42,445 nucleotides of DNA, from the IMG/VR virus record IMGVR_UViG_2693429518_000021. One strand, 5' to 3'. Shown one piece after another: positions 9,082 through 36,958 of this stretch. Position 1 is the stretch's first letter. Every line of letters begins with the position of its first letter. Both the position numbers and the translations under genes were made by a program. The notes beneath the pieces are model-generated. The model did no database searches, was not told where the DNA came from, and saw nothing but the letters and a program-made list of their open reading frames with translations. This DNA is from a virus. Taxonomy: Duplodnaviria; Heunggongvirae; Uroviricota; Caudoviricetes.

Positions 9082-9630
9082 TTAAATCAGTGCTTCAGCA
9101 TCAGCACCTTCGCTGATATCGTCGAAATCGTCAGCGCTTGCCACTCCGCCGCCAGCGAATGCATCGCCGTCTCGCAGGAACTGGACTCCGCCTAGTGAGG
9201 CATTAATGCGTTTACCGAAATTATTGTCCTGTGCCCAGATATCGATAACGGCGTTTACATAGCACCCTGCATAGGGACGTCCATCAGCCTGAATAAGTGG
9301 CGAACGATCGCGATCAAGAACAGCTGGGCGCGCTTTGTTAGCAGCATTCAGGAAGAAATTGCCGGGGAAGCCTTCATACTCTGCTTTTTCATCACCATCA
9401 TGCAGGCACAGATTGAGTTTTTTCTCCAGTTGGTTATAAATGGGCTCCCACTTCTCTCCCCATTTTTCCTTCGCTACCTGCTTCATAGCTTTACGGATTT
9501 CTTCCAGTTGTGGGTGTTTGGGTGACATTAAAAATACTGCGGAGAAACGTGGATCGCCTTCGCCGTTTACAGTTTTAGCTTCAAACAGAGACGGGAAGGC
9601 CAGACGAACATTGTTCAGCTTCAGTTTCAT
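9082..9630 (-). CDS. DUF2815-family phage protein, ssDNA-binding-like
   Basis: 182 aa; N-terminal MKLKLNNVRLAFPSLFE and acidic C-terminal tail (DDFDDISEGADAEALI) typical of SSB-like proteins. Confidence 0.5.
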   Translation of the reverse strand: MKLKLNNVRLAFPSLFEAKTVNGEGDPRFSAVFLMSPKHPQLEEIRKAMKQVAKEKWGEKWEPIYNQLEKKLNLCLHDGDEKAEYEGFPGNFFLNAANKARPAVLDRDRSPLIQADGRPYAGCYVNAVIDIWAQDNNFGKRINASLGGVQFLRDGDAFAGGGVASADDFDDISEGADAEALI

Positions 9631-9645
9631 GGGTATTTCCTTAAA

Positions 9646-10947
9646 TCAGATGAGGTCTGCGGTTAGCGTATCGTCGGATACGTCGTCGAAATCATTTACA
9701 GGGTTGATATTGAGTGCGGGGCGTGGGTCTGACTCGGGAACGATGGTGGGTTTACCATCAGCTCGTGTTATCAGTGCCTCGACTTTTGACCAACGGCGCG
9801 GACTGGCCTTTTTGATAAGTTTTTCGGCTTTTGTGGGGCTAATAAGTTTAAAGTCGAATACTTCTTCAGTTTTGTACCTGAACTGGTCCTTCAGAAGTGC
9901 GCGAGCTGCCTCTTCATCACTCCAGGCCCGGTTACCTTGTTTTCCTGTTACCAGTTTAAACCCCGGTACCGGATGTCCGGCATTGAGTTCATTGTGAACC
10001 CGGTCTCGTACTGCCTTTAGCCAGGATTCAATAAAGTCGGCCTGGCTATAGATCTCCGCAAGCTGCTCAATGGTTAACAGAGGTACACGTGCGCTGGCAT
10101 TGGAGATTATTTCGCTGACAGGCTTTGTCAGATCTTCAAAATCGCTGGCCGCTGTTTGTAAATGCTGCATTTTCTGGGCAGTGCAAATAGCTTTTGCTTT
10201 ACAGAAGCGGCACTGTTTTTCTCCAGGTATGAAGTTTTCCAGCGGTAGTGTCTCAATGCCTTCGCATTCAGCAATATTGAGAACAAGGATCGCACTGGTT
10301 GCGGCCTCCAGTGCCCGTTCACCGAAAGACTGAAGTTCCTGTACGGTTAACGACCATTCTGAAACGTGGTTGAGCCTTGGCTGGTGAATAAATAATCTTA
10401 CAGTCTCAAAGTCATACAGCATGCTGAATTGTTCGAGCGCACCCAGAGCATACAGTTGTAGTTGCTCATTTTGTTCTGCATCAATGCGGACGCCTTTGCC
10501 ATATTTCAGGTCGTGGATTTGTAATTCGCTACCAGCAATGATTATGCCGTCGGCAGTTCCGAAAGATTCTTCCACACCCGTTATATGTGAGAAATCAACA
10601 CGTTGTTCAACCAATAGTTCATTATTCTGTGCAAGAGTCCAGACCGTATCAACATACCGGCCAACGGCTTCGACCATTTCATCATCCACCTGTGGGCCAG
10701 ATGTATCATTAGGATTTTCGCGAAGGGGGTATGAGCTGAGAAACATAGAAACATTGCATCCGGCGTAGTGTTCCGGGTAGCTTTGCCTGTTTCGTAGAAC
10801 TTTTTCAGCAAGCGCGTGCGCTGCAGTGCCCTCGATTGCAAAAGTTGTTTCTTTATCCGGTTGTGTGGCCTCCAGCGCCAGACTTCCTGGGCAGCGCATC
10901 CATCGATGCGCTGATGATGGAGAAAGTTGTGCATGAACGTCTGGCAT
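9646..10947 (-). CDS. DUF2800-family PD-(D/E)xK nuclease, Cas4/AddB-like with Cys cluster
   Basis: 433 aa; N-terminal [15 protein letters not shown] matches the DUF2800 signature as I recall it; C-terminal [10 protein letters not shown] cysteines consistent with an Fe-S cluster. Confidence 0.65.
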
Positions 10948-10949
10948 GA

Positions 10950-11852
10950 TTAACCCTCCAGTGCTTTTTCAGCCAGGGTGATTACTTCAGCGAGATTTTC
11001 ATCCGTTACTTCACCAAGTTTCCTGGCTCCCTGTTTTTCCAGAATTGCAATAGCTTCTGCCCGGTAACCCCCTTTTGCTAACTGGAGGATCAACCCTTCA
11101 GCTTGTTTGCGTAGTGCCGCGAAATCAATTGTATGGTCATCTTTGGCGTCATGATTCTGGCTGGAATTTGCTGCGTCTCTGCGTGCAAATTCTTCTTGCA
11201 GCTGAAGGTACTCAACACGGTTGATCTCGATATGGCCTTTTTTCAGCATCTCGTTCAACTTGCGTAAGGTGTGGAGTTCACTGGCTGCTGTGCCGGATAC
11301 ATTTTTGACGTAAAACGGCCCCGTGCGTTCTCCATCTTTGTTACTGGCCTTTTTCGGCTTAACTTCATCACGCCCATCCGCAGGTGCATCAAGTAGCTGC
11401 TCGGCAAAAACACGTCGCTCGCCGATGGTTGGCAGGTCGTCCCAGAACTTAAGGATGTTACGGGACAGGTCCAGGAGAGCAGGTTTAAGCAGCGCCCTGG
11501 CTCGTTTGACGCCCTGCAATGCGCTGTCGAGAGCATCAATCTGAACTACTCGTTTATCGCCTTCAGCATCACGGTAGGCAACAGCACGTTGCAGCATGTC
11601 TTCTGTGATAGGGGTGGCTACCGGGTAGAAACCAGCCAGTGCGATAACGTCGCTGAACTCCAGATCATCCAGTGTCATTGCCGCTGACATATTTTCAGTT
11701 TCAGTTGCTGTATCCCGACATTCCTGCACTCGTGAAATCGTGTCAGGATGCATAACAATGCCTGATGCCATTGTGCGGATAAGACGTTCAAGCAGCGCAT
11801 TATGTTGTGCCAGAAGTTGATTATTAAGTTCGAGACTGGTTTCTAAACTCAT
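10950..11852 (-). CDS. Hypothetical protein, first large gene of the leftward operon
   Basis: 300-aa ORF with GAGGA Shine-Dalgarno 7 nt upstream of its ATG; no recognisable motifs. Confidence 0.5.
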
Positions 11853-12031
11853 ACTGTGGTCCTCGCTACAAGGAGAATGAAAGTGATGATCAGACCGAGC
11901 GCAGTGGCAACGGCCAGACCGGTCATCAAATCGAAGTTTTTACGGCGATAACGGAGAACATCGCGCCCCGTCAGTCGATGGAGGTATTCAGGTTTCATCG
12001 GTTGTATTCCTTTTTTCATATCGGGGAGCAC
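11849..12031 (-). CDS. Possible small membrane protein
   Basis: 60-aa ORF with hydrophobic C-terminus (LAVATALGLIITFILLV); stop overlaps the downstream start (ATGA); weak start/RBS context. Confidence 0.3.
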   Translation of the reverse strand: MLPDMKKGIQPMKPEYLHRLTGRDVLRYRRKNFDLMTGLAVATALGLIITFILLVARTTV

Positions 12032-12057
12032 GCTGTTGCGAGTGCGCTTTCAGACAT

Positions 12058-12085
12058 AAAAAAGCCCGTCACTTGAGGCGGGCAA
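12058..12085 (-). terminator. Intrinsic-terminator-like hairpin plus U-tract on the minus strand, upstream of the leftward operon
   Basis: Minus strand reads GCCCGCC-TCAAGTGA-CGGGC followed by TTTTTT. Confidence 0.35.
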
Positions 12086-12222
12086 AGGCTACACACAGCA
12101 ATTACTTGGATGTCAGCGAATGCCTGCTTTTAACCACGTCAGACGAGATGGCTCTCTCTGTACCCCTACAGCGAGAATTCGGCTAATATCTCTTTACCCC
12201 TATAGTTTTAGAGAGAATTAAG

Positions 12223-12747
12223 ATGTCTGAAGAAAAAGGACTTGTACGGCGTATAACTGAGGCGGCCACTAGTGCTGGTGGTGCTTTGAAAGGTGCTGTT
12301 GATTTAGCAAAAGAAGTTAATGCGTTGCAGGTGGATTACAATGTTAAAAGTAAAACTATCGATCTACTTGATAAACTAATTGATGCGCGTACTGGACAAT
12401 TCGCACTAACGGAGCTTTTGAACGAAGCTAAACAGCGCATTGTTGAACTCGAATCCCTTCTGGAAAAGAAACAGGATTGGGATAGTGAGAAAATGAACTA
12501 TGAAATGTACCACCCGATTACCAATACGGTGGTCTATGTACTGAAGCCTACTGACGATCCTGAGTTCAAGCCTCATTATCTTTGTACTACATGCTATGAG
12601 TCGGGTATGAAGTCTATACTTCAATACCATACTTCTAATGCCGCTTATAAAATTCTCAAGTGTCATAAATGCTCCGCTGAATATAAATTTCCCCGAAATA
12701 TAGAAGTCAGTGGCAAAACTCCTGCACCGTTACAACCTGCCAGATGA
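12223..12747 (+). CDS. Hypothetical protein with N-terminal coiled-coil and C-terminal 4-Cys zinc ribbon
   Basis: 174-aa ORF; CTTC ... CHKC motif near the C-terminus; divergent from the leftward operon; somewhat AT-rich. Confidence 0.55.
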   Translation: MSEEKGLVRRITEAATSAGGALKGAVDLAKEVNALQVDYNVKSKTIDLLDKLIDARTGQFALTELLNEAKQRIVELESLLEKKQDWDSEKMNYEMYHPITNTVVYVLKPTDDPEFKPHYLCTTCYESGMKSILQYHTSNAAYKILKCHKCSAEYKFPRNIEVSGKTPAPLQPAR

Positions 12748-12841
12748 TTAGCAGTTCTCTTTGGTGGTGGTGTAGTGGTAGATGCTGAACTTCGGATTGA
12801 CTCAATGGACTGATCTTCACCCCACCCCAAAAGGAACTAAG

Positions 12842-12859
12842 CGCCCCATCGTCGGGGCG
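12842..12859 (+). terminator. Weak hairpin CGCCCC-ATCGTC-GGGGCG downstream of 12223..12747
   Basis: 6-bp GC stem read from sequence; only a short T-run follows. Confidence 0.3.
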
Positions 12860-13110
12860 TTTCAACTTGCGTGACTTATCAGTTTGTCGCGGTGTTGTCC
12901 TCTACGCTTACCGTACGCATACGGACTCGGCGCTTACCTCGATCCCATCGGGTGCTATTTCGTTTTGCCAGGAGTACTGCGGCTTACCTGTCACGCGGTT
13001 CAGTTTGTTAAAGAGCCAGTATTAAAAAACGCATTAATTATGCGATATCGTATTTATATGCGTTATGGGATTTTGTGTCAATACGAAAATGAATTATTTT
13101 GCAAATAAGA

Positions 13111-13135
13111 AAACCGCCCTTGTGGAGAGCGGTTT
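13111..13135 (-). terminator. Intrinsic terminator downstream of the repressor gene
   Basis: Inverted repeat AAACCGC / GCGGTTT with 11-nt loop; on the minus strand it is followed by a U-rich tract (TCTTATTT), 30 nt after the cI stop. Confidence 0.45.
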
Positions 13136-13165
13136 GATCAGAAGTAAGTTATCAGACTGTAAAGG

Positions 13166-13840
13166 TTAGTACATACGTAGCGCGGATTTGGCGATCCCCG
13201 CCACGTAATGGATTTTTTCAATGTTTTCGCGTGGTACTCTGACTGGTGGATGATCTTCATTTACAGACATTAGATGGAACAGGCCATCGCGTTCGAACAA
13301 GAAGGTTTTAACCATGACCTCACCTTCCCGGGTAACCACAAGTACTTCATCACCAGGAGTGTAGTCGTGGTTGGGTTCGACGATTACGAACTCCCCCTCT
13401 TTGATTCTAGGCATCATTGAATCACCAACACATTTCAGGGCGTATGCATCTTCATCCTTTGTCGGCCAGTATATGAAACCATCACTGCTACCTACTGAAT
13501 ATTGGGTGTCGCTCCAAAGTCCTCCAACGCCTAGCTGAGTGTTTCCCAAAACAGGTACTTTATTAAACCTAAGAGAAATATACGTTTTTATACCTGTCGC
13601 GTCCTCTTTCTCCATTTCTTGAAGGCTCCTTTCTGCCAAGTCTATTGGTGACACGTGGAAGTAGTCGGCGATCTGCTTTAACGTTGCGTATTTCGGATCT
13701 TTCACCTCTCCTGATACCAGCCTGTGTAGCGTTGGTTGGTTCAGCTGTAACCGACGTGCCAGCTCAGTTATCGAGCTTATCTTGGCTTTGTCCATCAGGT
13801 ACTTGATGTTTTGAGAAAGGATATCGGTAGTATCAATCAT
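13166..13840 (-). CDS. cI: CI-like prophage repressor (HTH + S24 LexA-like autopeptidase domain)
   Basis: 224 aa; N-terminal HTH (ITELARRLQLNQPTLHRLVSG); C-terminal S24 signature with catalytic Ser in GDSMMP and Lys in VMVKTF. Confidence 0.85.
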   Translation of the reverse strand: MIDTTDILSQNIKYLMDKAKISSITELARRLQLNQPTLHRLVSGEVKDPKYATLKQIADYFHVSPIDLAERSLQEMEKEDATGIKTYISLRFNKVPVLGNTQLGVGGLWSDTQYSVGSSDGFIYWPTKDEDAYALKCVGDSMMPRIKEGEFVIVEPNHDYTPGDEVLVVTREGEVMVKTFLFERDGLFHLMSVNEDHPPVRVPRENIEKIHYVAGIAKSALRMY

Positions 13841-13981
13841 TTGGATTCATCCATGTTGTATACAGGGACGGTGATTATGCGTTATCGGATATTTTAATCT
13901 AGGATGACATAGAATTGCTGTATTGCTGAGTAATCCGTTTTCGTATAAATTTGCGCTATAGACGAAAGTGGAGACTTAAAT
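13841..13981. promoter_or_regulatory. Divergent immunity-region promoter/operator interval between cI and cro
   Basis: 141-bp AT-rich intergenic region between divergently transcribed repressor and Cro-like genes; specific operators could not be resolved by eye. Confidence 0.5.
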
Positions 13982-14182
13982 ATGTCCGGACTAACACCAC
14001 AAGAGATGGTCAAAAGCTTGATTGATTCAGGGTATACCCAAAACCAAATTGCCGAAATTGCAGGCGTGAAGCAGTCTTCTATTAGTCGGCTTCTTACCGG
14101 GGTTCATTCTGACCCTCGCTTTTCTACAGTACGTGCGATAGAAAAACTTTTTCAGGAAGTGACAGCTAGACAAAAGGTGTAA
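13982..14182 (+). CDS. cro: Cro-like HTH regulator
   Basis: 66 aa; HTH motif YTQNQIAEIAGVKQSSISRL; positioned divergently from cI. Confidence 0.65.
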   Translation: MSGLTPQEMVKSLIDSGYTQNQIAEIAGVKQSSISRLLTGVHSDPRFSTVRAIEKLFQEVTARQKV

Positions 14183-14185
14183 CCC

Positions 14186-16372
14186 ATGTCCGATAGCAAA
14201 CCATGGGGAGCTACGCCTGATGAGTGGTTTCATTTCGACCTGGTATTGGGGCGGACTGCTCATCTTCTCCCAGTTGTATGTAACCCCAGTGCGACCATAT
14301 CCCCTGATAGTAAATTGAAAGCGTTGGGTAAGACGCCGAGTCGCTATAACCGGGACCGCCAGGTCACAGGTATTGCTCAATGGACCGGGCATGTTGTTAC
14401 TGAGCATGATTTTGCCCGCTGGTCGAATGAACCGGATTATGGCATCTGCGTGCGTACAGGCCATGGCTGGCTGGCGCTGGACTGCGATAGCGAAGATGAA
14501 GACATTCAGGCAGATATTCGCAAAACACTTGTGCAACTTCTGGGTGAGTCGCCGCCGCGACGCTGGCGAGCAAACAGTAATAAGTGTCTGTATCTGCTGG
14601 CCGTTGATGGTGATTTCCGTAAGCGTATCCATCGCCTGGCGGGGGATATGGGCATTATCGAGTTGCTGGCGAACGGGCAGCAGTTCGTTGCCTGTGGTAC
14701 GCACAGCAGCGGCGCGCGTATTGAATGGGACGGTGGTTTGCCGGATGAACCTCCGGCTATTACAGGTGAGCAGCTTGAAACGCTGTGGCAGCGCCTGGCT
14801 GAACAACTCCCTGTGTCGGTAACCACCGAAGCGGGCAACACGAAGATGCGCGACCGTTCAGCATTCACGCCCGGCGCGACGGATGATACAGCTGAATATC
14901 TTGATGCCAATGGCTGGACGCTGCTGGATGGCGCAAACGGTGAACGATATATCCGCTGTCCGTTTGAAGACGGCCACAGTAGCGGAGGCGATCCAACAAG
15001 CACAGTTTATTTTCCTGCGGGAACCGCAGGCTTTGAGCAGGGGCATTTTAAATGCCTGCATGCCAGTTGCGCGCATCGTGATGACGGAGATTTCCTGAAT
15101 GCCATCGGGATCCGCAACGACGATTTCGAAGATCTGACCAGCATCGAAGTGGCGGAACCTTTACCGCTGCCTGCTTTCGAGCGTGATAAATGGGGGCGTA
15201 TCGAGGCAACCATCAGCAATGCAGCCAAAGCAGTAGTACGCTCTGATTTTGTGGACATCGATATTCGCTTTGACCAGTTCCGCGACGAAATCATGTTTGC
15301 CCCGGCAGGATCCGGACAATGGCGGGCATTCACCGATGCGGATTATGCGCGCCTGCGCATCACGATGGAAAAGCGGGGATTTAAACCTGTTGGCCGTGAA
15401 CTTATTCGCGATGTGGTGTTACTTGCAGCCGATGAACAACCATTCGATTCAGCGATCACCTGGCTGAACGGACTGGAGTGGGATGGCGTGCCGCGCATCG
15501 AATGTTTCTACCATACGCACTTCGGTACCGCCGACACGCCTTATACCCGTGCGGTGTCTATGTACATGTGGACCGCGTTGGCGGGGCGAGTACTGGAGCC
15601 AGGCATCAAAGCGGATATGGTGCCGATCCTCGTTGGTCCGCAGGGCTGCGGTAAGTCTTCCGGAGTGGAGGCACTGAGCCCTGATCCTGCGTTTTTTACT
15701 GAAATCTCTTTTGCCGAAAAAGACGATGATCTCGCTCGAAAAATGCGTGGTCGGCTGGTGGCAGAGATTGGTGAACTGCGCGGGCTTAATACCAAAGAGC
15801 TGGAGTCAATCAAAGCGTTTGTGACGCGTACTCACGAAAACTGGATCCCGAAATACCGGGAGTTCGCCACCCAGTTTCCTCGTCGCCTGGTGTTCGTTGG
15901 TACCACTAATGAGGACGAATTCCTTGCGGACAAGACTGGTAACCGTCGCTGGCTCCCCGTGGAAGTGTCGAAAGTCGACGTGAAAGCGATAAAAAGAGAT
16001 CTCCTTTTACTTTGGGCTGAGGCTCGTGAGGTGTTTCAGCGTCTGGGGGGTATCCAGTTCCGTGAGGCTGAACAACTGGCAGCGAGTGTCCATGAACAGT
16101 ACACCATCAAGGATGCTTGGCTTGAAACGGTAGAGAAATGGCTCGACACGCCCGACCTGATGACTAATGAACTTCCGCGAAATTGCGAATTTTTACGCGC
16201 AAGTGATGTTTTGCGTGATGCGATTGGGCTAAATCCTGACCGCATCGGAAAACGCGAAGAAATGCGAATTAGTAATGTTTTGCAAAATTGCGGGTATAAG
16301 CGTGCCCAAAGGCGAATTGGGGGGAAAAAATGCAAGGTTTGGGAACCGCTGGAACCACGCGGAACCACCTAG
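14186..16372 (+). CDS. Phage primase / replication initiator (prim-pol N-terminal region plus P-loop NTPase)
   Basis: 728 aa; Walker A GPQGCGKSS in the C-terminal half; acidic cluster ALDCDSEDED in the N-terminal half; first gene after cro; iteron repeats begin within its 3' end. Confidence 0.75.
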   Translation: MSDSKPWGATPDEWFHFDLVLGRTAHLLPVVCNPSATISPDSKLKALGKTPSRYNRDRQVTGIAQWTGHVVTEHDFARWSNEPDYGICVRTGHGWLALDCDSEDEDIQADIRKTLVQLLGESPPRRWRANSNKCLYLLAVDGDFRKRIHRLAGDMGIIELLANGQQFVACGTHSSGARIEWDGGLPDEPPAITGEQLETLWQRLAEQLPVSVTTEAGNTKMRDRSAFTPGATDDTAEYLDANGWTLLDGANGERYIRCPFEDGHSSGGDPTSTVYFPAGTAGFEQGHFKCLHASCAHRDDGDFLNAIGIRNDDFEDLTSIEVAEPLPLPAFERDKWGRIEATISNAAKAVVRSDFVDIDIRFDQFRDEIMFAPAGSGQWRAFTDADYARLRITMEKRGFKPVGRELIRDVVLLAADEQPFDSAITWLNGLEWDGVPRIECFYHTHFGTADTPYTRAVSMYMWTALAGRVLEPGIKADMVPILVGPQGCGKSSGVEALSPDPAFFTEISFAEKDDDLARKMRGRLVAEIGELRGLNTKELESIKAFVTRTHENWIPKYREFATQFPRRLVFVGTTNEDEFLADKTGNRRWLPVEVSKVDVKAIKRDLLLLWAEAREVFQRLGGIQFREAEQLAASVHEQYTIKDAWLETVEKWLDTPDLMTNELPRNCEFLRASDVLRDAIGLNPDRIGKREEMRISNVLQNCGYKRAQRRIGGKKCKVWEPLEPRGTT

Positions 16373-29685: not shown

Positions 29686-30126
29686 ATGTCTACCTATTCT
29701 TTTATGGATGTCACTGCGACGCTGACCGGGCCGACAGGTTCGATTGACCTCGGGTACGGTTCGGCAAGTTCTGAAGAGGGGATTGTGGTTGCGATGGGCG
29801 GTCCTAAAAACACCATGACCATCGGTGCTGATGGCGAAGTGATGCACAGTCTCCATGCAGATAAAAGCGGGACGATTACCGTTAACCTTCTGAAGACATC
29901 ACCGACAAATAAAAAATTGTCGCTGGCGTATAACGCACAGAGCCAGTCTTCTGCCACATGGGGGAATAACGTTATCGTGATCCGCAACAAGGTCAGCGGC
30001 GACATCATCACGGCACGCAGTGTTGCGTTCCAGAAACAACCGGATAACGCCAACGCTAAAACCGGTAATACGATGCCGTGGGTGTTTGACTGCGGCAAGA
30101 TTGACCAGGTTCTCGGGGAGTTTTAA
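29686..30126 (+). CDS. Tail tube protein
   Basis: 146-aa ORF between sheath and chaperone. Confidence 0.55.
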   Translation: MSTYSFMDVTATLTGPTGSIDLGYGSASSEEGIVVAMGGPKNTMTIGADGEVMHSLHADKSGTITVNLLKTSPTNKKLSLAYNAQSQSSATWGNNVIVIRNKVSGDIITARSVAFQKQPDNANAKTGNTMPWVFDCGKIDQVLGEF

Positions 30127-33639: not shown

Positions 33640-34704
33640 ATGTCACAGAACTGGATGAGACATTTCGAGCTGCAGCTTGTGGACGGGAACGGTCAGGGAA
33701 TTGAGCTAAGTGATTTTAAAGTGACCTTTACGATCGACTGGTTCAACATCAGCAGCGCGTCCCGGGTAGGGACTATCAAAATTTATAACCTCTCGGCAGA
33801 TACTGTGAACCGAATCACCGGGCGGGAGTTTTCGAAAGTGCGTCTGATTGCGGGTTACGACGGTATCGCGCCGGAGGTGTCGGCAAGCGACGTCGGGATC
33901 GTGCGGGAGGTTGATGCGGCGGACGTGGGCCAGAGTGATGGCCGCAACTACGGACTGATTTTCAGCGGTGAAATTCGCTACTCGGTTACAGGAAAAGACA
34001 GTCCGGTTGATTCCTACGTCCTGATTCAGGCAGCAGATACTGATCTGGCTTTTGCCACCAGTATAACCTCACAGACGCTGGCTGCCGGTTACACGGTCGC
34101 TGATGTGAACCGTGCGCTGATGAAAGACTTCGAAGCCAAAGGTGCGACCGAAGGCCTGACGCCTGAAATGCCTGCTACTGTATTCCCCCGGGGGCGGGTG
34201 CTCTTTGGCATGACGCGGCATCTAATGGATAACGTAGCCGGGCAATGTGGCGCAACATGGCAATTCGTAGACGGTCAGCGCCAGATGGTGGCGAATAATG
34301 AATATGTTCACGAAGCGATTGTGCTCAACAGCGCTACCGGGCTTATTGGCATGCCGCAGCAGACCATCGGCAACGGCGTAAACGTTCGCGCGCTTATTAA
34401 TCCGAACATCCGGGTTAATGGGCTCATTCAACTGGATCAGGCTTCCGTATATCGCACCGCGTTGTCGAACAACGATATCGCTATGGCTGGTGGGCAGATC
34501 ACCGACCAGAACACGGACGGAAATATTACGCTAAGCGGCACCACATCGCAGCCTGCCAGCATCGCAACGGATGGCGTTTATATTGTGCGCGGGATTATGT
34601 ACACTGGCGATACAAGGGGCCAGGCGTGGTACATGGATATGATGTGCGAAGCGCGCGGTGCGCAGGATATGCCATCCAGCACTGCTTTTCAGAGAGGATT
34701 ATAG
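33640..34704 (+). CDS. Putative baseplate hub/tail protein
   Basis: 354-aa ORF between the tape-measure region and the baseplate V/W/J genes. Confidence 0.45.
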   Translation: MSQNWMRHFELQLVDGNGQGIELSDFKVTFTIDWFNISSASRVGTIKIYNLSADTVNRITGREFSKVRLIAGYDGIAPEVSASDVGIVREVDAADVGQSDGRNYGLIFSGEIRYSVTGKDSPVDSYVLIQAADTDLAFATSITSQTLAAGYTVADVNRALMKDFEAKGATEGLTPEMPATVFPRGRVLFGMTRHLMDNVAGQCGATWQFVDGQRQMVANNEYVHEAIVLNSATGLIGMPQQTIGNGVNVRALINPNIRVNGLIQLDQASVYRTALSNNDIAMAGGQITDQNTDGNITLSGTTSQPASIATDGVYIVRGIMYTGDTRGQAWYMDMMCEARGAQDMPSSTAFQRGL

Positions 34705-36605: not shown

Positions 36606-36958
36606 TGCGATACAGACGTGAAGACGCCGATGGCGATTACACCTTTGGCAGCGGTGATGACACCTGGCTGATTAACTCACCGGAGGCCGTGGCGCAGGCG
36701 GTAAAAACGCGATTTGAATTGTGGTATGGGCAATGGTTTCTCGACACCACCGAAGGGACCCCGTGGATCCAGTCTGTGCTCGGTAAGCAGAAGCCGGAAA
36801 CCTACAACCTGGCGATCCGTAAGCGCATCCTCGAAACGCGGGGCGTTAAATCAATCCTCTCTTTCAATACGACGGTGGATACCACGACCCGACGTGTCAT
36901 GTTTTCCGCTGAAATCGACACTCTCTATGGAATAACGACTGTTAAATCGGAGGCGTAA
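36605..36958 (+). CDS. Baseplate protein W-like (gp25/GPW family)
   Basis: 117-aa ORF between V-like and J-like genes; assignment by size and order. Confidence 0.5.
   Translation: MRYRREDADGDYTFGSGDDTWLINSPEAVAQAVKTRFELWYGQWFLDTTEGTPWIQSVLGKQKPETYNLAIRKRILETRGVKSILSFNTTVDTTTRRVMFSAEIDTLYGITTVKSEA

Follow-up and report, generated by a model that had tools for sequence, protein, structure and literature searches.

A predicted Rip1-family gene in a sieB-type cassette beside the leftward control region of an Escherichia coli prophage

The prophage defence system Rip1 ("ring interacting pore 1") consists of a single protein that is harmless on its own (PMC13434031, citing Patel et al. 2026, Nature 651:1060) and that is triggered by ring-forming phage proteins: the portal in the case of Pseudomonas phages and the small terminase in the case of E. 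coli phages (PMC13434031). In the complex described, an 11-mer terminase ring is encircled by twelve Rip1 subunits, where the C-terminal half of Rip1 touches the ring while the N-terminal amphipathic helices make up a pore, and the cell dies before the phage matures (PMC13434031). A second described system is the sieB locus of phage P22, where the sas RNA switches translation to the internal Esc start (Ranade and Poteete 1993, via PMC12197685 and PMC7067206). Here, we describe a locus that shares elements with both: In IMG/VR virus record IMGVR_UViG_2693429518_000021, a stretch of 42,445 nucleotides (nt) of Caudoviricetes DNA that we refer to as the window, positions 12223-12747 hold an open reading frame (ORF) whose product is, judged by its sequence and predicted fold, a new member of the Rip1 family. 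The locus is largely explained by known kinds of element, with rip1 in a sieB-type cassette beside the leftward promoter and operators (PL/OL). We consider it quite probable that the interval from this ORF to the cI repressor gene consists of two ordinary parts of a temperate-phage immunity region, a Rip1-family gene and a leftward control region; beside it stand items that appear, on their sequences, to be more unusual, namely an antisense module shared by sieB and rip1, a boxA leader without an N gene, and an RprA-like module.

Three further described elements serve for comparison. Complexes formed at rrn-type boxA elements counter Rho-dependent, not intrinsic, terminators (PMC2724277), and the boxA-spacer of rrnG, ugcucuuuaacaa (PMC2724277, Table 1), is identical to the boxA of the window. 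The processed form of the small RNA (sRNA) RprA consists of the last 47 nt of that RNA (PMC9262595). Lambda LPR1/PreS, finally, is an Hfq-dependent sRNA of the lytic cycle whose 3' end lies at the terminator tL2a (bioRxiv 10.1101/2024.10.31.621285).

The protein encoded at 12223-12747

The protein of 174 amino acids (aa) is recorded in RefSeq as a hypothetical protein (WP_001288046.1). A phmmer search of PDB matched it to chain L of entry 9oox (E = 8.4e-45; residues 3-159 against 3-160 of 164), which holds Rip1 of Escherichia phage HK446 together with the small terminase of phage T6, and a profile of 15 members returned the same chain as its single strong match among the PDB sequences (E = 1e-74). 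Structure prediction pointed the same way: When the AlphaFold2 model (pLDDT 76.5) was submitted to Foldseek, the only significant matches were chains M and L of 9oox, with a probability of 1.00 and 47% identity (E = 2e-11 and 2e-10; target-based TM scores 0.66 and 0.59, respectively). The protein has the layout of Rip1, an amphipathic N-terminal helix and a C-terminal four-cysteine zinc-ribbon/beta domain. The hydrophobic moment of residues 1-24 was 0.43-0.49, against 0.40 at the 95th percentile of shuffled sequences; the N-terminal half of the model is helical (residues 4-16, 21-34, and 39-92) and its C-terminal half is rich in beta structure; and the four cysteines (C121, C124, C147, and C150) are invariant in 15 of 15 homologues.

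A first-pass annotation of the window, made by a model from the sequence and its ORFs, had described this product as a zinc-ribbon protein with a coiled-coil N-terminus and a CxxC...CxxC C-terminus, and had suggested a structure prediction as a check. The ORF is indeed real and conserved, and the cysteine motif is borne out by the homologues. A Pfam search of the ORF returned nothing beyond a sub-threshold coiled-coil match; the suggested prediction, once run, led to Rip1 in 9oox. PADLOC (database of 2023) had no match for the protein, and both Pfam and PADLOC evidently lack a Rip1 model. Among phage protein families, the ORF belongs to PHROG 1244 (E = 2e-43), a family without an assigned function that also holds HkaP of HK620 and gp37 of HK446. 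By homology with HK446 Rip1, the window protein may share the defence function, i.e., the ring trigger, the pores, and the protection against phages.

The likeness to HK446 extends from the protein to its setting. The two proteins are homologous over their full length and agree in predicted fold, in the four zinc-binding cysteines, and in the amphipathic N-terminus, and both genes are borne by prophages, follow an upstream region of sieB/sas type, and run antisense to the early leftward operon. They differ in length (174 aa in the window versus 164 aa in HK446) and share just under half of their residues. The phages differ as well: The window phage is non-lambdoid, with a replication module of DUF2800, Enc34-SSB, and VapE type, and it has its gene directly beside cI, with no N gene between PL and rip1. 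Homologues of rip1 also adjoin cI repressors in prophages of Citrobacter, Edwardsiella, and Pantoea. A scan of genome contigs with the family alignment found only three loci. The first-pass annotation had noted that places next to the repressor often hold accessory genes of the kind expressed in lysogens, and a Rip1 defence gene in the position that sieB takes in lambdoid phages agrees with this.

The coding sequence of rip1 behaves as an exchangeable cassette. In phage 606R2, it is swapped for an allele of 189 aa (45% identical), while the flanks are 90-98% identical, and both the 174-aa and the 189-aa alleles recur in relatives from IMG/VR. The window itself is an E. coli prophage with matches in 152 of 5,426 complete E. 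coli genomes, and its nearest isolated phages are those of the vB_EcoM-606R2 group. Bases 11800-14200 were found at 100% identity in enterotoxigenic E. coli (ETEC) H10407, O103:H2 12009, and other strains. A "hypothetical protein" in about 150 complete E. coli genomes, these two among them, can thereby be named as Rip1-type, and annotations as PL/OL, boxA leader, and terminators can be given to the "non-coding" DNA next to it.

One relative deserves separate mention. In the Edwardsiella prophage (1406-3525 of contig L008), the rip1 homologue (76% identity) lies 62 nt downstream of a gene for a 510-aa protein on the same strand, which has a faint match to ORC/CDC6-like ATPases, and the sas-like block is largely absent at that locus. 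The Edwardsiella locus may be a two-gene variant.

Promoters, antisense region, and leader

Upstream of rip1, the window carries a block that is shared with phages of a different kind. Within this block (12117-12228), bases 12117-12225 are about 80% identical to lambdoid phages that are otherwise unrelated to the window: blastn aligned them with lambda 34396-34483, directly before the sieB start codon (79% over 89 nt, E = 2e-15), and the block also aligns with P22, HK446, HK620, and Lambda_2E9 and was found in the Citrobacter and Pantoea prophages. On the plus strand, it aligns with the promoter feature of the P22 record (29690-29720) and with the "sieB RNA start site" of that record (29727), which by homology would place the rip1 promoter at about 12159-12189 and the start of its mRNA near 12196. 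On the minus strand, it aligns base for base with the P22A-sas sequence (PMC13397905, Table 2), including both copies of CUGUAGGGGU and the stem AACCAC/GUGGUU; the window has CTRTAGGGGT twice and the stem in the form AGCCAU/GUGGUU. Three independent substitutions in this stem, that of the window among them, keep the pairing only as G-U on the minus strand, which argues for a structured antisense RNA. With the ATG at 12223 and the mRNA start near 12196, the block is by position antisense to the 5' untranslated region (UTR), ribosome-binding site, and start codon of rip1.

The block is not tied to one gene. Among 119 IMG/VR loci with the module, the ORF downstream was SieB in 78, Rip1 in 24, and another membrane protein in 6 (N-terminally hydrophobic, 105-184 aa), while none was found in 11. 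The module thus precedes SieB or Rip1, and rip1 sits in a sieB-type cassette, in which the promoter/sas block is more conserved than the proteins behind it. As in P22 and lambda, promoter, leader, and antisense region are kept together with both ACCCCTAYAG copies and the AACCAC/GUGGUU stem, and an abortive-infection gene is expressed rightward from within a leftward operon. Unlike in those phages, the protein downstream is Rip1 rather than SieB, and the sas-like region continues into the RprA-like module and an intrinsic terminator, where P22 and lambda have ral/orf28 next. The P22 switch to Esc has no visible counterpart either: In the alignment of 15 Rip1 homologues, M91 and M95 are variable and no conserved internal start of the Esc kind was seen, and therefore the antisense effect at rip1, if any, would be plain silencing. 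This antisense arrangement is also that of HK620, HK446, and the Pantoea prophage, where it lies within an N-dependent pL operon. The promoter/antisense module common to rip1 and sieB suggests how prophages stop suicide-type defences from firing on themselves.

The leftward promoter itself lies on the other side of rip1, in the spacer before cI, as the first-pass annotation had considered possible. On the minus strand, a -35 element TTGACA (13081-13076) is followed after a 17-nt spacer by a -10 element TATAAA (13058-13053), which would start a transcript near 13046. Three 14-bp sites of the form ATRCG-N4-NGNAT overlap these elements (13040-13053, 13058-13071, and 13081-13094), and the same repeats recur in the cI-cro intergenic region (13877-13890 and 13933-13946), which holds all of their other copies except for the match at 36815 described below. 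The window contains seven matches where 0.43 would be expected, for a pattern derived from these very sites. By its sequence, this near-consensus promoter with its three sites is PL with OL1-3. It was passed over by our promoter scan, which demands T at position 6 of the -10 element. With PL in the spacer, rip1 is antisense to early transcripts, as had been proposed; the accompanying description of the gene as divergent from the leftward operon has to be revised, since the gene lies inside the leftward unit and is antisense to leftward transcription. Next to the operators, the terminator scan found the cI terminator on the minus strand at the place named in the first-pass annotation, with a 10-bp stem AAACCGCTCT/GGGCGGTTT and then TCTTATTTGC. 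Two observations concern the operator pattern. A palindrome CGCATAATTAATGCG followed by T6 (13024-13044, minus strand) covers about +3 to +23 of the predicted PL transcript; it was called terminator-like by the scan, is built of operator half-sites, occurs in this immunity type only, and is a candidate fourth operator, pause site, or attenuator. A further operator match, ATGCGCTTACGGAT at 36815-36828 (minus strand), lies far from the immunity region and is compatible with chance at the expected number per window.

The arrangement of repressor gene, terminator, three operators over a leftward sigma-70 promoter, and boxA at about 30 nt is that of the lambdoid PL-OL-nutL region. The boxA of the window has the rrn consensus, whereas that of lambda is CGCUCUUA, and where nutL has a boxB hairpin and the phage an N gene, the window has a conserved leader of about 150 nt instead. 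The motif GCTCTTTAACAA occurs once in the window and fits the rrn type in its consensus GCUCUUUA, its ACAA spacer, and its place early in an untranslated transcript; by analogy, Nus factors probably load there. No boxB-like conserved hairpin appeared in the consensus fold of the leader, no ORF lies between PL and rip1, and no N_peptide match was found among the neighbours tested.

The leader is present in 67 IMG/VR contigs, which were collected by a scan with a 29-nt exact leader pattern that biases the first 29 nt and somewhat inflates the apparent conservation. Mean pairwise identity was 92% in the leader, compared to 47% upstream of it and 61-67% in the downstream genes. Upstream of boxA, we counted at least six unrelated promoter/operator sequences, and in the other immunity types the different promoter-like sequence always stops short of boxA by a few bases; the stretch between boxA and the GC hairpin is nearly identical in the 67 contigs. 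The leader has an invariant 7-bp long-range closing helix, GCGUGAC/GUCACGC, and a consensus fold with little covariation. The sequence GGUAAGC(G/C) occurs in it three times (near 12988, 12936, and 12910), at spacings of 52 and 26 nt; it matched no known motif and might be bound by a protein or by the RNA polymerase complex. The GC hairpin that ends the leader, which on the plus strand is followed by TTTCAACTT, is kept in all leader variants with or without rip1, and the rip1 cassette is inserted immediately after it. The terminator scan called this hairpin on neither strand, its T-run being short, and it likely ends rightward rip1 transcription.

The first-pass annotation had taken the spacer 12748-13165 to be hairpin-rich and AT-rich and to be a possible site of sRNAs. 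The hairpins it named are present, the GC hairpin with the stem and loop given in Table 1 and CCGTA-CGCA-TACGG at 12911-12924, but hairpin richness beyond chance was not found: The leftward RNA 13046-12830 folds at -54 kcal/mol, compared to -57.5 ± 4.0 kcal/mol for dinucleotide shuffles (z = +0.87), and an unusually stable structure of the spacer was rejected. AT-rich sequence is confined to 12990-13169, where promoter, operators, and terminator lie (GC 31-36%), and the leader has 54-56% GC. The covariance-model search that had been suggested gave no true Rfam family for 12748-13165 at E ≤ 10; the only match that reaches the spacer is a sub-threshold, chance-level one to RNAI (E = 3.1), centred on the cI terminator, and a known sRNA family in the spacer was likewise rejected. 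The spacer RNA is instead the 5' leader of PL. Candidate small RNAs of the locus, the sas-like RNA and the RprA-like module, were found at 12228-12054, on the other strand and on the other side of the gene.

Table 1. Features of the rip1 locus and neighbouring genes (window coordinates).
Feature	Position	Strand	Basis or remark
rip1 homologue, 174 aa	12223..12747	plus	phmmer/PDB, Foldseek, PHROG 1244
Predicted sieB-type promoter of rip1, TGTACC...TAATAT, -10 at 12184-12189	12159..12196	plus	P22 homology
sas-like antisense RNA region, ends predicted	12117..12228	minus	complementary to rip1 5' UTR, ribosome-binding site, start codon
RprA-3'-domain-like sRNA module	12054..12110	minus	Rfam, blastn, 57 of 67 contigs
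GC hairpin CGCCCC-ATCGTC-GGGGCG	12842..12859		last leader element (minus) and likely rip1 terminator (plus)
Conserved untranslated PL leader, ~176 nt	12860..13018 (to hairpin ~12840)	minus
rrn-type boxA GCUCUUUAACAA	13016-13005	minus	~30 nt past predicted start
PL promoter and three operators	13040..13094	minus	sequence reading
cI terminator	13101..13135 (hairpin 13135-13111)	minus	terminator scan
cI-type repressor	13166-13840	minus	helix-turn-helix (HTH) and Peptidase_S24 domains
Cro-like HTH protein	13982-14182	plus
49-aa membrane protein, first leftward gene	11849-11998	minus	PHROG 11981
300-aa protein	10950-11852		leftward operon
DUF2800/PD-(D/E)XK nuclease	9646-10947		leftward operon
Enc34-type SSB	9082-9630		leftward operon

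The RprA-like module and the slot before the early genes

Past the sas-like block, leftward transcription would enter a module that resembles the 3' domain of RprA and doubles as a terminator before the first leftward gene. It consists of a seed AAUUGCUGUGUGUAGCCUUUG (12103-12083), a stem GCCCG/CGGGC (12083-12079/12068-12064), and U6 (12063-12058). The Rfam model of RprA (RF00034) scored 45.5 bits here (E = 8e-4), under its gathering score of 70, and 51-55 bits in five relatives. A blastn search of 81 nt against the complete E. coli genomes gave matches in 5,420 of 5,426: About 149 of these have a full-length prophage copy, and in nearly all others the best match was the annotated rprA (82.6% over 46 nt). 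Of the 25 nt that precede the stem, 24 are shared with RprA, and the identity sets in precisely where processed RprA begins. The two 5' stem-loops of RprA are absent, and the 5' part of the RNA is sas-like sequence instead; the combined sas-plus-RprA-like RNA is not unusually stable (z = -1.01).

Among the related contigs, 57 of 67 have the module just before the first leftward gene, independent of rip1, in the form UUGCUGUGUGUAG(U/C)CUUUGCCC, hairpin, and U-run. In these 57 contigs, the 22 single-stranded nt that precede the stem (UUGCUGUGUGUAGYCUUUGCCC) hardly vary at all, while changes in the stem are compensated (GCCCG/CGGGC, GCCCC/GGGGC, and GCCCGUC/GACGGGC; GCCCAUC/GAUGGGC in E. coli), which argues for a seed or a protein-binding site rather than a terminator. 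In duplex predictions restricted to the site at -140..-86 of the rpoS leader, RprA paired at -32.4 kcal/mol, a value that none of 500 shuffles attained. For the window variant, we obtained -18.9 kcal/mol, with 17% of shuffles at least as good, and for an L023-type relative a marginal -21.3 kcal/mol (3.6% of shuffles as good). Because the pairing of the window variant is indistinguishable from that of shuffles, we do not claim rpoS activation for it. No complementary site for the seed was seen within the phage, and in the literature we found no description of a phage-borne RprA homologue.

The module thus shares with RprA the stretch AAUUGCUGUGUGUAG(U/C)CUUUGCCC and, in many relatives, a terminator with a UCCCA-type loop, and it differs in its Rfam score and in having neither the two 5' stem-loops nor most of the stretch that pairs with rpoS. 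It also lies in a prophage, with no indication of an Rcs-controlled promoter, whereas chromosomal rprA is followed by ydiL. With LPR1/PreS, it has in common that an sRNA-like element has its 3' end at an early leftward terminator just before early genes, in a similar CUUUGCCC-stem-U6-AU context, and its synthesis would presumably be limited to times of PL activity. Body and seed differ from those of LPR1/PreS, and the module resembles RprA instead. If the resemblance is functional, the RprA-like module would be, after LPR1/PreS and StxS, another early/late leader terminator that doubles as a host-directed sRNA.

No promoter-like site was seen in the ~55 nt that separate the RprA-like terminator from the start codon of the first leftward gene, so the left operon depends on transcription from upstream. 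The first leftward gene lies at a distance from boxA that depends on what is in between: 220-225 nt in 16 loci without an ORF, 350-510 nt in 25 loci with none or with small sense-strand ORFs, 768-858 nt in 3 loci with a sense-strand ORF of 170-175 aa, and 891-917 nt in 14 loci, the window included, with antisense rip1 and sas. The slot is therefore a cargo site inside the early operon, and between leader hairpin and RprA-like module it behaves as a moron insertion point. Other cargo in relatives comprises sense-strand ORFs of 62-91 aa, which are not arginine-rich N-like proteins, and the 170-175-aa ORF (MITVNRAEYLSALTCAGVKDVRYY...).

Proposed working, alternative readings, and neighbouring genes

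From the identity of the protein, the promoter, operator, and boxA sequences, the sieB/sas homology, and conservation, a scheme for the locus can be proposed. In a lysogen, cI would sit on OL and keep PL off, while rip1, transcribed from its own sieB-type promoter up to the GC hairpin, would guard the cell. Rip1 would stay inert until an infecting phage makes ring-shaped oligomers of small terminase or portal, upon which its zinc-ribbon C-terminal half would assemble around the ring, its N-terminal amphipathic helices would open a pore in the inner membrane, and the infection would abort. When repression is lifted, RNA polymerase would start at PL and be joined by Nus factors at boxA, in a complex that may shield roughly 1 kb of untranslated RNA against Rho. 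The PL transcript would run antisense across all of rip1 and the sas-like region and cover the rip1 ribosome-binding site, and antisense transcription and the sas-like RNA together might silence rip1 during the lytic growth of the phage itself, as suggested by the action of P22 sas on sieB; rip1 would then be shut down at the time when rings of the phage's own terminase and portal are being made. Polymerase would next meet the RprA-like terminator (12083-12058), where some transcripts would end, possibly as an sRNA, and others would read through to the early genes for the 49-aa membrane protein, the 300-aa protein, the DUF2800 nuclease, and the SSB.

Several points weigh against this scheme. 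A PADLOC 2023 model for the protein does not exist, and the defence role comes from a single recent study on homologues with 47% identity. All transcript starts and ends, as well as Nus dependence and terminator readthrough, are deduced for this phage. The boxA has no recognisable boxB and there is no N-like protein between PL and the terminator, which leaves readthrough of a U6 intrinsic terminator unexplained. A separate sas-like RNA has no recognisable promoter of its own, and rip1 lacks a conserved internal start of the kind to which P22 sas switches translation.

Two readings of the coding content appear highly improbable. That the ORF encodes a superinfection-exclusion protein of SieB type is suggested by its place in the sieB slot behind a sieB promoter/sas region and by the HK620 record, which calls HkaP a "putative superinfection exclusion protein". 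The window protein is 18% identical to lambda-type SieB and shares no motifs with it, it lacks the N-terminal transmembrane segment of SieB, its sequence and fold match Rip1, and in BLASTP each ORF downstream of the module was assigned to one of the two reference sets, SieB or Rip1. SieB does not align with Rip1, and the label given to HkaP is positional only. A small protein gene in the spacer has as little to recommend it: The window ORF at 12884-13108 (74 aa, TTG start) and a 47-aa coding sequence annotated at the equivalent place in the vB_EcoM-606R2 record would be the candidates, but the former crosses boxA, PL, and the operators, has no homologue or family that we could see, and runs into sequence that is unrelated upstream of boxA in other immunity types, and leader variants carry 1-nt indels that would shift the frame. 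By its position, the 606R2 sequence covers the PL/operator end of the spacer, a segment that varies between immunity types. The view of the first-pass annotation that the spacer holds no convincing ORF therefore stands, and a Rip1-family gene next to a leftward control region remains our reading of the interval.

The RNAs leave more room for doubt. The leader could be more than a Nus-loading site, either as a put-like antiterminator that works without N and lets polymerase past the GC hairpin and the RprA-like terminator, or as the 5' body of an early RNA of about 300 nt that ends at the RprA-like terminator in relatives without rip1. It is the most conserved segment of the region and is kept across at least six promoter/operator sequences, with the mosaic junction exactly at boxA; there is a strong terminator to pass, yet no N-like gene; in a divergent leader type, two small hairpins are swapped for others in place while the closing helix stays; and in the 16 relatives with the shortest distance, the leader runs directly into the RprA-like module. 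Its folding energy is no better than that of shuffles, however, compensatory change affects 3 of 32 consensus pairs (covariation term -0.6 kcal/mol), no Rfam family covers it, and its conservation is inflated somewhat by the exact search pattern, so that we regard a functional leader RNA as rather unlikely. How this phage group passes its first terminator with a conserved boxA leader, and with neither N nor boxB, is the question that the leader poses. A stronger contender, to which we give a little less than an even chance, is that the RprA resemblance is a by-product of selection for termination and that the element is only tL, the first leftward terminator. The sub-gathering Rfam score, the similar context of lambda tL2a, the shuffle-like pairing of the window variant with the rpoS leader, and the want of a site within the phage all speak for it. 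Against it, the near-invariance of the 22 nt beside a compensating stem is not what a terminator calls for, RprA is itself most conserved in the same 24 nt, the likeness starts at the processed 5' end, and in lambda a functional Hfq sRNA has its 3' end at tL2a.

Taken jointly, a portable sieB promoter/sas block serving as a "self-immunity adaptor" and an RprA-mimic sRNA ending the PL leader make up a speculative proposal, which we hold with considerable reserve. If it were true, the adaptor would let abortive-infection genes (sieB, rip1, and others) ride in an early operon, with the cargo switched off by the phage's own early transcription. In this family of temperate enterobacterial phages, lytic growth or induction would supply the Hfq network of the host with a mimic of processed RprA, and members with rip1 would fuse this sRNA to a sas-type antisense domain, so that cis and trans action would reside in one RNA.

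Beyond the immunity region, a VapE-type primase/helicase is encoded past the Cro-like gene. The 49-aa protein whose start lies ~55 nt past the RprA-like terminator has a basic stretch and a C-terminal hydrophobic helix, which raises the question of whether it is Kil-like. In E. coli JNEC-KY208 (NZ_AP045181.1, 1350429-1354165), an IS2 element lies inside the equivalent of window bases 11800-14200.

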